Source: an uncultured Lachnospiraceae bacterium (lineage in GTDB: Bacteria; Bacillota; Clostridia; TANB77; CAG-508). From it: a DNA stretch of 64,000 nt. The DNA lies in the NCBI GenBank assembly GCA_945917765.1, contig CAMEHU010000004.1:14925-78924 (forward strand), read 5' to 3'. The notes below the pieces were generated by a model that saw only the letters and a list, made by a program, of their open reading frames with translations, was not told the DNA's origin and ran no database searches. Below, piece by piece: positions 4,472 through 52,565 of this stretch. Both the position numbers and the translations under genes were made by a program. Position 1 is the stretch's first letter. Each line of letters opens with the position of its first letter.

Positions 4472-5062
4472 TTATTTATTTTTTAAGTTTGTCTTTTTAA
4501 TTAATCCTTTAGTAACAATTATTGCCACGATAATTGAGCATATCGAAGCACACCAAACCGGAAACACAATAGAGGTAGGATTATTAGACCCCAACGAACT
4601 TCTAATCGCAATTACCGTTGTAGGAATTAATTGTAATGACGCTGTATTCAATACTATAAAAATCATCATTGAATTTGATAATCTTTCTTTATTTATATTT
4701 TCTTCCTGCATGCTCATCATTGCCTTAACCCCTAATGGTGTTGCTGCATTTCCCAATCCAAAAATATTTGCAATAATATTCATAGATATTTCTTTTTTTA
4801 TTTTTTCTTTATTTTTTATTTCTGGAAATAATAATCTAATTATAGGATTTAATATTTTTACTATAATATTTATTAAATTACTTTTATAAGCAATTTTCAT
4901 TATTCCATTCCATAAACACATTGTTCCTAAAAAAGTTAAGCTTAATTCAACAGCATTTTTTGTGGATTCAAAAATCCCATTATTTACTTTTTCAATATTA
5001 CCAGATATACATGCATACATAATAGATACTATTAAAAAAATTGGCCATATTTTATTTAACAT
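4472..5062 (-). CDS. spmA: Spore maturation protein A
   Basis: 196-aa membrane protein with Gate-domain-like sequence (GLGNAATPLGVKAM), paired with spmB. Confidence 0.7.
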   Translation of the reverse strand: MLNKIWPIFLIVSIMYACISGNIEKVNNGIFESTKNAVELSLTFLGTMCLWNGIMKIAYKSNLINIIVKILNPIIRLLFPEIKNKEKIKKEISMNIIANIFGLGNAATPLGVKAMMSMQEENINKERLSNSMMIFIVLNTASLQLIPTTVIAIRSSLGSNNPTSIVFPVWCASICSIIVAIIVTKGLIKKTNLKNK

Positions 5063-50760: not shown

Positions 50761-51662
50761 TTTGATTGCTCCTCATAATTGGTTATTAATAATTCTGAAA
50801 TTTCTCCACGTCCTTTAGCATTTGAGTTTATCATTCTTTTGGCAGAAACCTCGTTAATAATAAAGCCATCGTATATAGTGTCAAAGAAATTATCTTCCTC
50901 ATTAACGTTCTTAGGATTTGAATTACTTAGCATTAATTTAGCATTTTTCAAATTTAATTGATTGTAATACTGTGCTAATTCTTTTTGGTTTTCATCATTA
51001 AAATCTTCTTTTGTGTAAGATGTAAATCCTGATGTTACTGAAAGGGGTCTATATGGTGGGTCAAAGTATACAAAAGTATTTTCGGTTATAAGATCTTCAC
51101 TTTTTCTGTAATCTCCATATTCGAAAGTAACATTTTGTATTAATTTTGATAAATTTCTTAAATTGTTTGAATCACATATAGTAGGATTTTTATATTTGCC
51201 ACAAGGAACATTGAATTTTCCATCTTTGTTTACTCTATATAATCCATTGAAACAAGTTCTGTTTAGAAAAATAAATTCAGAAGCTCGTTTGATGTTTAAT
51301 TCATCGTTTAAAACATAAGAGTTGTATTCAGTTCTAATGTTGTAAAAATATTTCTGTCTATTATCACTATCTAAAATTAGAAAATCTTTTTCTTTTTTGT
51401 CTAATTCTTGAATTAATGCTTCAACATTATTTTTTATTACATTATAGCAATTAATTAAATCTTTATTTATATCAAAAGCATATGCTTCTTTTACTTCATA
51501 TTTTTGTAGTATATCTAGTAGAACAGCTCCACCACCAACAAATGGTTCCACATATCTTTCGATATTGCCATTTATTAATTCTACAGGATAATATTTTGTT
51601 AATTGTGGTATTAAGCTATTTTTACCGCCAGCCCACTTTACAAAAGGTTTTACTATTTCCAT
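50712..51662 (-). CDS. dpnM: Dam-family (D12 class) N6-adenine DNA methyltransferase, DpnM-like
   Basis: PFVKWAGGKNSL, EPFVGGGAV and YFDPPY motifs. ATG 51662 after GGAGG preferred over the ORF-track start at 51728. Confidence 0.85.
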   Translation of the reverse strand: MEIVKPFVKWAGGKNSLIPQLTKYYPVELINGNIERYVEPFVGGGAVLLDILQKYEVKEAYAFDINKDLINCYNVIKNNVEALIQELDKKEKDFLILDSDNRQKYFYNIRTEYNSYVLNDELNIKRASEFIFLNRTCFNGLYRVNKDGKFNVPCGKYKNPTICDSNNLRNLSKLIQNVTFEYGDYRKSEDLITENTFVYFDPPYRPLSVTSGFTSYTKEDFNDENQKELAQYYNQLNLKNAKLMLSNSNPKNVNEEDNFFDTIYDGFIINEVSAKRMINSNAKGRGEISELLITNYEEQSKWNSQITSTITMEAFA

Positions 51663-51765
51663 TTTTACCTCCATTATTTCTGAAATAACTATATAATATT
51701 TTATAAGGTTTTTCAAGCGAACAAACAAAGATTCTTAAATAAATATTATATTTAGGGTAAAAAGA

Positions 51766-51793
51766 CAAAGGAGCTAGAATTCTAGCTCCTTTG
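51766..51793. terminator. Perfect 28-bp palindrome (bidirectional terminator)
   Basis: caaaggagctagaattctagctcctttg. Confidence 0.7.
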
Positions 51794-51797
51794 CATG

Positions 51798-52007
51798 TTA
51801 ATAGTCAAGCCTGAAAATAAGAGATTGAGAGCATTCTGAGAAGAAGGGGCAACAATCACAATTTCCTATTTCAGTTATGATATTGCATTCAATGCAATCA
51901 TTGCAAAAGCAACTTGGAATAGGAGGGTGTAATTCTGTGCTGTAAGCATCAGTCTTGACCGTTGCTGACTTCTTGGAAGTCTCATCCTTATTTTTCCGTT
52001 TAAACAT
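51798..52007 (-). CDS. Small Cys-rich protein/peptide (69 aa; alternative start 52031)
   Basis: MFKRKNKDETSKKSATVKTDAYSTELHPPIPSCFCNDCIECNIITEIGNCDCCPFFSECSQSLIFRLDY; own TTGAAA-17-TACAAT promoter; followed by the palindromic terminator. Confidence 0.5.
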   Translation of the reverse strand: MFKRKNKDETSKKSATVKTDAYSTELHPPIPSCFCNDCIECNIITEIGNCDCCPFFSECSQSLIFRLDY

Positions 52008-52078
52008 AAAATCAAATCCTTTCGTATGCATTATAAAAGTGTGTGAAATGTACTTGACGGACAATTTTTTATGTAAAT

Positions 52079-52107
52079 ATTGTAACATAAAATACAATAT
52101 ATTTCAA
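52079..52107 (-). promoter_or_regulatory. Minus-strand promoter TTGAAA-17-TACAAT
   Basis: -35 at 52102-52107 and -10 at 52079-52084 (read on the minus strand). Confidence 0.55.
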
Positions 52108-52145
52108 TACTATTGGTAAAAATTTACAAATATGTATAAAAATGC

Positions 52146-52174
52146 TTGACAAATTATGTAAAACATGATATTAT
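52146..52174 (+). promoter_or_regulatory. Plus-strand promoter TTGACA-17-TATTAT for the peptide-rSAM operon
   Basis: TTGACA 52146-52151, TATTAT 52169-52174. Confidence 0.65.
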
Positions 52175-52261
52175 GTAACCGTACTACAAATCGTATTACC
52201 TAAGGCAGAAATCTGCTTTAGCCGCCAATTCGTTCTTCGATTATTGAAAGGAGCACTCACA

Positions 52262-52474
52262 ATGAAAACATTGAAGAAGACGAATTTCTGGAATCCTGGT
52301 GTGAAATACAACAGGAAGAATTCCGCACAGAGCTATATGTCTTCCATGAAGGCAAAAAAGGTCAGTGGCGGAGTTAAGGCTGCTGCAACGGACTGTTCCT
52401 GCAACTGCTACGGTGGTTGTTCTTCGTGTACTAGCTCTTGCTCGTGCACATCCTGCAGCATGGAAAACAGCTAA
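52262..52474 (+). CDS. Cys/Ser-rich RiPP precursor-like peptide (70 aa)
   Basis: MKTLKKTNFWNPGVKYNRKNSAQSYMSSMKAKKVSGGVKAAATDCSCNCYGGCSSCTSSCSCTSCSMENS. AAAGGAG RBS 52247-52253. Lies immediately upstream of an rSAM/SPASM gene. Confidence 0.7.
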   Translation: MKTLKKTNFWNPGVKYNRKNSAQSYMSSMKAKKVSGGVKAAATDCSCNCYGGCSSCTSSCSCTSCSMENS

Positions 52475-52503
52475 GGAACATAAGTTCATAGGCAACTGAA
52501 CGA

Positions 52504-52543
52504 AGTGGGGCAGCTAAGATTGTATAATCAAAGTTGCCCCATT
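52504..52543 (+). promoter_or_regulatory. Intercistronic hairpin between precursor and maturase genes (possible attenuator or processing site)
   Basis: tggggcagc / gttgcccca stem (52506-52514 / 52533-52541) with 18-nt loop; no strong U-tract. Confidence 0.4.
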
Positions 52544-52565
52544 TCCACACAAAGGAGGAAATATT

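Follow-up and report, generated by a model that had tools for sequence, protein, structure and literature searches.

The ACGX system (TIGR04340/TIGR04341), in which a Cys-rich peptide is encoded together with a radical S-adenosylmethionine (rSAM) enzyme, has been defined by comparative genomics, and our literature searches on ACGX and on TIGR04340 found no relevant experimental paper. Systems of this type are widespread in gut anaerobes, archaea and ultra-small bacteria and, to our knowledge, neither their product nor their timing has been shown by anyone. Here we consider a stretch of 64,000 nucleotides from an uncultured Lachnospiraceae bacterium (contig CAMEHU010000004.1; this whole stretch is referred to as the window), in which an ACGX-type operon is faced, from the opposite strand, by a small open reading frame (ORF) for a Cys-rich protein of 69 residues.

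The partner enzyme of the small ORF, a radical SAM/SPASM protein encoded on the plus strand at 52566..53600, is a member of TIGR04340, with a score of 468.7 bits against a cut-off of 400. The enzyme of locus L038 scores 462.8 bits, and the enzymes of the other loci considered below (given by their working numbers) are members as well. The window thus shares with the defined system the architecture of a Cys-rich peptide and an rSAM enzyme, but differs from it in its peptides. While the canonical peptide of L061 scores 64.7 bits on TIGR04341 (cut-off 28), no match to this family was found for the window precursor (E<=1), for its relatives in G019 and L038 (E<=10) or for the small-ORF homologues P0008 and P0012 (E<=10), and the small ORF itself is not part of the system as defined. 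The closest characterised relative of the partner enzyme is SbtM (TIGR04082), to which it aligns with 184-200 bits over the C-terminal 320 residues; this is below the SbtM cut-off of 350 bits, and the partner enzyme has neither the N-terminal extension nor a selenocysteine peptide. SbtM makes thio(seleno)oxazoles from Cys, acting at Gly-Cys; its Cys targets lie in small-residue contexts like those of the 70-residue precursor of the window, and the part of the published account available to us describes no small Cys-rich partner protein for it (PMC9204691). Bufferins, in turn, are copper-chelating thiooxazole peptides made by MNIO enzymes, with operons under the metal/stress regulator SigF/NrsF (PMC11626156). 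The likeness here is one of analogy only and concerns Cys-rich ribosomal peptides, probably made into metal-binding heterocycles, with a dedicated regulator, and it is our model for a regulator cassette ahead of the operon; the bufferins differ in that the enzyme is an MNIO and not an rSAM protein, in that the peptides are exported with signal peptides and in that their regulators are unrelated to the small ORF.

The conservation of its frame, start, promoter and terminator marks the 69-residue small ORF as a real gene. It lies on the minus strand at 51798..52007 (69 codons plus stop). The mechanically called ORF is longer (51798-52097, 99 residues from a TTG), and translation from the ATG at 52005-52007 gives the 69-residue product, which reads MFKRKNKD...CFCNDCIECNIITEIGNCDCCPFFSEC...LDY and contains eight Cys. 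The start codon can be fixed at this position because the block AAGGATTTGATnTTATGTTTAAAC is retained even in a homologue of only ~45-50% identity. The ribosome-binding site AAAGGA (52017..52022, minus strand), 9 nt 5' of the ATG, is kept in all variants of the gene and, together with the start block, even in L038. A start further upstream (MKGFD...) was rejected, as the window has ACG where that ATG would be and the conserved ribosome-binding site falls within the codons it would add; an antisense ORF of 107 residues, open in L036 and L077, was likewise rejected, as it is broken in the window. The promoter-like site TTGAAA-17-TACAAT, with a TG extension (52079..52107, minus strand, 10/12 consensus), keeps its position in all versions. 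By itself it proves little, since promoter-like sites are frequent in AT-rich DNA such as this (24 found, as compared with 12.8 expected, per 3 kb). On the plus strand the precursor-rSAM operon has its promoter, TTGACA-17-TATTAT (52146..52174, 11/12 consensus), and the two promoters stand back to back with their -35 boxes 39 bp apart. Downstream, the monocistronic unit ends at an intrinsic terminator (51755..51794, minus strand), in which a 13-bp stem centred on GAATTC is followed by the T-run CTTTTTACCC; the hairpin is identical in L001 and L036, and the L038 copy has a different hairpin 3' of the gene. An earlier reading of this DNA, made from the letters alone (the sequence-only reading), had described a minus-strand ORF of 69 residues with a basic N-terminus and eight Cys, a promoter at 52079-52107 back to back with that of the operon, and a palindromic terminator at the ORF end. 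The coordinates and sequence of the ORF are as given there, and promoter and terminator scans recovered the other two elements, the terminator at 51794-51765.

Six sequence variants of the gene, all with an intact frame, were found in independent gut-metagenome contigs: that of the window and those of L001, L042, L036, L077/L078 and L038-41. Near-identical copies in the same context occur in further gut-metagenome contigs (L002-L007 and L037), and the diverged versions are 84% (L001), 71% (L042), 75% (L036) and 78% (L077/L078) identical. In protein homologue searches, the word index gave two clusters and the profile four; when 1.84 billion representatives were searched exhaustively with phmmer, a single true distant homologue came up, P0008, which is ~45-50% identical and sits in L038-L041. 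These counts should be read with care: the L077 copy (4523-4750, minus strand, of a 42.6-kb contig) had no gene call and was recovered only with the small-ORF profile. Such micro-genes are under-called, and protein-database counts of the family are therefore underestimates. In all variants the protein consists of two dissimilar parts, a basic and variable N-terminal part of ~29-30 residues (pI ~9.6) and an acidic, conserved C-terminal part of 40 residues that holds the Cys (pI 4.1), with the pattern IP.CF[CH]NDC..C.I..EIG.C.[CS]CPFF..C.QSL...LD. When the window was compared with the diverged copies over the core (residues 31-69), there were 11-12.5 synonymous as against 3-9 non-synonymous differences, and the ratio of non-synonymous to synonymous substitution rates (dN/dS) was 0.03-0.11 at a dS of 0.9-1.2. 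The N-terminal 30 codons are much less constrained, with a dN/dS of 0.2-0.4 and up to 1.1; set against this N-terminal range of 0.2-1.1, the core range is 0.03-0.37. By these substitution patterns, the Cys-rich core is under strong purifying selection.

All six known variants are the divergent neighbour of a TIGR04340-type rSAM operon, in two operon layouts, and the statement of the sequence-only reading that the small ORF shares its region with such an operon is thus borne out beyond the window. In the first layout (window, L001, L042) the small ORF and the rSAM gene are separated by the precursor gene. In the second (L036, L077, L038-41) the rSAM start is directly opposite the small ORF and the precursor, identified by the same leader (e.g. 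MKKKKGIKATNFWSQKVSYRAKRTAQ...), comes last in the operon, preceded by the genes for the methyltransferase and for a P-loop kinase-like protein. The outer flank, on the other hand, changes from version to version (the window has DpnM, L001/L036, L042 and L038 have other unrelated ORFs, and L077 has an APH gene), so the conserved block ends at the small-ORF terminator. The unvarying position and orientation of the cassette speak for a function linked to the operon start, and the small ORF is functionally tied to the ACGX-type operon. One could still suppose a gene unrelated to the operon, e.g. a mobile-element gene that is adjacent by chance, as all loci are on mobile elements (with integrases, resolvase, RepA_N, a type IV secretion system coupling protein and restriction-modification systems) and as the cassette recombines independently of the operon; the window locus itself is flanked by a DpnII restriction-modification cassette on the left and an integrase on the right. 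We consider chance adjacency very improbable, however, because on its inner side the small ORF always borders the beginning of the rSAM operon while its outer neighbour changes each time, and because this adjacency holds across both architectures and down to ~45-50% protein identity. In none of the collections searched was an intact small ORF found without an ACGX-type rSAM within a few kb.

The reverse does not hold. A scan of representative genomes with the window rSAM gave 28 loci, 20 of them with 700 bp or more ahead of the rSAM gene, and in six-frame translations of 4 kb on each side of these 28 loci the small ORF was not found with its own profile (best E=0.2). Sixteen Clostridial loci without the small ORF have a precursor of the same leader type and an rSAM that is 81-86% identical to that of the window. 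The small ORF is likewise absent from G051 and L080-82, and the other ACGX loci without it number ~24. When 60 relatives and 400 genomes of the class were searched in six frames, it turned up only in the genome of the window itself, and back-translated pattern scans of representative genomes, JGI metagenomes and IMG/VR returned no relatives. At the DNA level, homology between the window and the ORF-less loci starts at ~52118-52146, between the two -35 boxes, and the stretch 51798-52109 matches only L038-40. Moreover, the identities of the small protein and of its partner enzyme do not run in parallel: L001 and L077 have small ORFs that are 93% identical and rSAMs that are 56% identical, whereas L077 and L038 have rSAMs that are 80% identical and small ORFs that are 51% identical. 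On these comparisons, promoter, ORF and terminator form a portable cassette of ~350 bp that is re-assorted between operon types. As ~24 ACGX loci and 460 related genomes are without it, the small ORF is judged to be a rare accessory add-on, dispensable and not a core ACGX component. Conservation in related loci, on which the sequence-only reading had let its case depend, therefore gives a divided picture, with absence from the ~24 ACGX loci on one side and strict conservation in one sub-lineage on the other. Together, the absence and the incongruent identities fit a regulator or accessory cassette rather than a catalytic subunit or a co-evolving substrate.

The question of a substrate should nonetheless be considered separately, as the sequence-only reading had offered the small protein as a second substrate for the same maturase. 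The rSAM enzyme would then modify its Cys core (thioether or thiooxazole) and give a second, distinct product. Such a role would suit a short peptide that is hydrophilic in its N-terminal part, has its Cys clustered towards the C-terminus and is always encoded beside a peptide-modifying rSAM, and its C-x-C-x2-C-x2-C followed by a hydrophobic stretch recalls sactipeptide cores, although by resemblance only. The comparison with the precursors points the other way. In eight precursors (window, G019, L049, L056, L058, L070, L038 and G051) the leader N-x-W-x3-[VI]...Y-x5-A-Q is invariant, while the cores are variable and of low complexity, made of Cys, Gly, Ser, Ala and Thr. Aligned with these eight, the small ORF shows no N-x-W...Y...A-Q leader, having neither a Trp nor the A-Q motif, and BLASTP between it and the window precursor gave E=0.89. 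Its conservation is reversed with respect to the precursors, with a variable N-terminus and a fixed core, as the dN/dS ranges given above illustrate, and the core holds invariant non-Cys residues (F, N, D, E, I, G, PFF, QSL) as a folded domain would. Bulky or charged residues flank the Cys, where the precursors have Gly, Ser, Ala and Thr and SbtM acts at a Gly-Cys site, and in a homologue one Cys is replaced by His and another by Ser. Furthermore, promoter and terminator of the gene are separate from those of the operon and lie on the other strand, and the small ORF does not co-vary with the enzyme. From this comparison, the small ORF is probably not a second substrate, and we leave that option only a small chance; a metal-sensing control or helper protein is more likely.

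The arrangement of the Cys residues bears on which kind of protein this may be. Their spacings are conserved as C-x2-C-x8-C-x2-C (paired knuckles) and as C-x2-C-x5-C followed by Cys-Pro, and the invariant non-Cys residues of the core are F34, N36, D37, E46, I47, G48, P54, F55, F56, Q61, S62 and L63. P0008 has His in place of the second Cys, Ser in place of the sixth and Cys in place of Ser60, such that eight ligands are kept (Cys8 or Cys7His). Swaps between Cys and His that are accompanied by a compensating gain of a ligand are the behaviour of metal sites and not of cross-link donors. Since the eight ligands are kept in this way, the conserved Cys cluster looks like a metal-binding site. For five members of the small-ORF family there was no Pfam match at E<=10, Fer4, Rubredoxin and Whib included, and the best sequence-profile match in the PDB was a PHD finger, with a non-significant E=1.5. 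The complete ligand motif of WhiB-like proteins or ferredoxins is not present in the small ORF, as there is no GVWGG turn and the first Cys of C-x2-C-x2-C is His in P0008. By such profile comparisons, the small ORF belongs to no described family.

A metal-binding core would also be compatible with a redox or assembly partner of the enzyme, i.e. a mini Fe-S protein (ferredoxin- or rubredoxin-like) or Zn protein that delivers electrons to the three-cluster rSAM/SPASM enzyme or acts as a chaperone for cluster or substrate. The domain is acidic and Cys-rich like ferredoxins and rubredoxins, the gene is strictly adjacent to that of the rSAM, and the small ORF contains C-x2-C-x2-C, C-x2-C-x5-C and Cys-Pro motifs of a type that binds 4Fe-4S in ferredoxins and SPASM domains. 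Nevertheless, this role appears unlikely to us. The small ORF is missing from the ~24 ACGX loci, which have very similar enzymes, and it is thus not needed for catalysis; it is a separate, divergent transcription unit, and small proteins that are 93% identical are paired with enzymes that are only 56% identical. In addition, eight Cys within 27 residues are too compact for a classical ferredoxin fold, no ferredoxin or rubredoxin match was found in Pfam, and the Cys to His change of P0008 falls on the first position of C-x2-C-x2-C.

The same density of eight thiol or imidazole ligands in 27 residues could instead be that of a cytoplasmic protein in the manner of metallothionein or CopZ, which would hold the metal or the thiol-reactive product as a metal buffer, a chaperone or a means of self-protection. 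The small ORF has CxC and CxCC motifs, which are reminiscent of Cu(I)-thiolate clusters. In a related cassette the neighbours are csoR-copZ-copA and a ZIP transporter, and bufferin-type thiooxazole peptides protect against copper (PMC11626156). We regard a buffer as rather improbable all the same, as metallothioneins do not usually have conserved hydrophobic residues or a C-terminal helix of the kind predicted here, the gene is very narrowly distributed, the searches gave no match to HMA or metallothionein families, and a gene that is read divergently, has a terminator of its own and bears a palindrome over its promoter is more like a control element. The related cassette just mentioned, seen in L080 (3570-4538, 316-1092) and in L082, consists of rSAM, methyltransferase and precursor genes located between the ZIP metal transporter and the csoR-copZ-copA copper operon, and its rSAM is 65% identical to that of the window. 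From this setting one may suspect that the modified, Cys-rich peptides have to do with copper or other metals.

Regulators are typically arranged like the small ORF, which stands divergently at an operon promoter, forms a monocistronic unit and is both dispensable and exchangeable between operons; for this reason we favour a control function. Our tentative reading, held with some reserve, is that the small ORF encodes a metal- or redox-responsive control factor. The sequence-only reading had listed a small Zn or Fe-S regulator among its options, and this is the best that remains of them: the eight-ligand pattern speaks for it, while no DNA-binding domain was found. For the small protein we infer metal binding, DNA binding and any regulatory effect alike. 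In such a mechanism, a two-part protein with a basic, fast-evolving tail and an acidic, conserved mini-domain with eight metal ligands would bind Zn, Cu(I) or an Fe-S cluster through its Cys, and the occupancy or oxidation state of this cluster would set its activity at the shared control region. It would act at a genome-unique palindrome over its own -10 box and at related TTATGTAA boxes on the partner promoter, and the outcome would be a tuned production of a Cys-rich, probably metal-binding, modified peptide.

The DNA of the control region offers candidate sites for such action. The palindrome TTTTATGT-N10-ACATAAAA (52067..52092) spans the -10 box of the small-ORF promoter and is a candidate operator. 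The arrangement TTTATGT-N10-ACATAAA occurs once in the 1.82-Mb genome. Of five versions compared, four have the palindrome equally far from the ATG, among them L038, with a protein of only ~45-50% identity and surrounding DNA of only ~70% identity. In L036, one arm is altered to TTATGCTA. On the plus strand, ATTATGTAA boxes are located at 52153-52161, in the spacer of the operon promoter, and at 52170-52178, over its -10 box, and of the seven TTATGTAA sites of the window three lie together in 110 bp of the shared control region. The window and L001 have the spacer box of the precursor promoter, L042 has it as TTATGTGA, and in all ORF-less loci compared it reads TTATTCCA. The TTATGTAA box over the partner -10 was rejected as a specific operator, since loci without the small ORF have the same box.

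Several points weigh against a control factor and should be considered along with these sites. As the TTATGTAA box over the partner -10 is present in ORF-less loci too, it is not specific to the small protein; the correlation of the spacer box rests on a single lineage; and the conservation of the palindrome could simply reflect promoter sequence. In Pfam, NCBIfam, PHROGs and PADLOC there was no domain or family match for the small ORF or its homologues, and no DNA-binding fold was detectable in the small protein. Because the conserved domain is acidic, contact with nucleic acid would need the poorly conserved basic tail. AlphaFold2 models of the full-length protein and of the 42-residue core were unusable, with a predicted local distance difference test score (pLDDT) of 44 for both. 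Finally, the csoR-copZ and HxlR neighbours that suggest a sensor in this position belong to other loci and not to that of the window.

These neighbours are, however, the nearest positional counterparts of the small ORF. An HxlR gene directly upstream of the canonical ACGX locus L064 (Prevotella) is a small Cys-dependent sensor gene in the same position and role, and CsoR, downstream of the cassettes of L080 and L082, is a small Cys-dependent sensor gene adjoining an ACGX-type cassette. Both differ from the small ORF in having a recognised fold, that of the winged helix or of CsoR, whereas the small ORF resembles neither in sequence and shows no recognisable DNA-binding fold. Zn-binding regulators of bacteria and phages can also be small and without a helix-turn-helix: Ogr/Delta, Mu Com, CsfB/Gin and anti-TRAP have 50-75 residues and paired CxxC knuckles, act via protein, DNA or RNA contacts and are often borne by mobile elements. 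The small ORF has no detectable sequence similarity to any of these, and the likeness is one of general description only. It is conceivable, if doubtful, that the gene represents an undescribed class of switch, in which a portable metal or redox sensor of ~70 residues, with an eight-ligand Cys/His cluster and a basic tail in place of a helix-turn-helix, plugs in before ACGX-type operons, themselves probable makers of thiooxazole peptides. If this were true, the production of a metal-binding peptide would respond to the very metal or oxidant that the peptide deals with. A swappable Cys8 mini-protein that faces the operon promoter would in any case be an experimental handle on when the system switches on, and the csoR-copZ-copA neighbourhood, the chemistry of SbtM and bufferins and the mini-protein itself point to metal or thiol stress as the condition worth testing. 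One should add that the small gene is confined to the mobile elements of a handful of gut Clostridia, so that its general importance is limited unless the mechanism is new.

The remaining observations concern the partner operon. Its first gene in the window encodes the precursor peptide of 70 residues (52262..52474, plus strand), with the leader TNFWNP.V.Y..KNSAQ and a low-complexity core of Cys, Ser, Gly and Thr. The Clostridial precursors form a family of their own, with an invariant leader and no TIGR04341 match, though their enzymes pass TIGR04340. Besides the window (52262-52474), loci of this family are G019, L043-L060, L058, L070, L038 (2440-2643), L077 (7519-7719) and L018 (1208-1471). 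Canonical peptides with ACGTACGAGDK repeats accompany enzymes of ~50% identity in Lachnospiraceae, Prevotella and Methanomassiliicoccus.

The precursor promoter and the 90-nt 5' untranslated region (5'UTR; window 52146-52262) are conserved across all Clostridial loci, including L043-L060. Within the 5'UTR, two adjacent, conserved hairpins can be drawn (52181..52221, plus strand), and in hairpin 2 (52200-52221) six of the eight pairs show compensatory changes between loci. Although a search of 51500-54500 with Rfam gave nothing relevant, covariation of this kind makes the two-hairpin 5'UTR a candidate cis-regulatory leader RNA.

The P-loop kinase-like gene of the second layout (AAA_18, with weak similarity to adenylate and shikimate kinases) lies between the methyltransferase and the precursor in L038 (2766-3362), L077 (6788-7384) and L079 (1945-2535), and operons of the window type are without it. 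The methyltransferase of the window, a TehB-like SAM-dependent protein (53740..54319, plus strand), is encoded in two frames that join at a CGG codon at 54112-54114. At least 11 diverged loci (L043-L060) have the join where the window has it, always at a CGG codon and in the context ..GAA/GAG/GAT/GGA/AAT CGG A/T.., and the downstream frame, GYF[VI]GNFFG.[NK]DSW..., stays conserved. In L038, L077, L080 and L058 the methyltransferase is in one frame. A +1 frameshift, conserved and placed at a rare Arg codon, would fit this recurrence better than the decay of a pseudogene.

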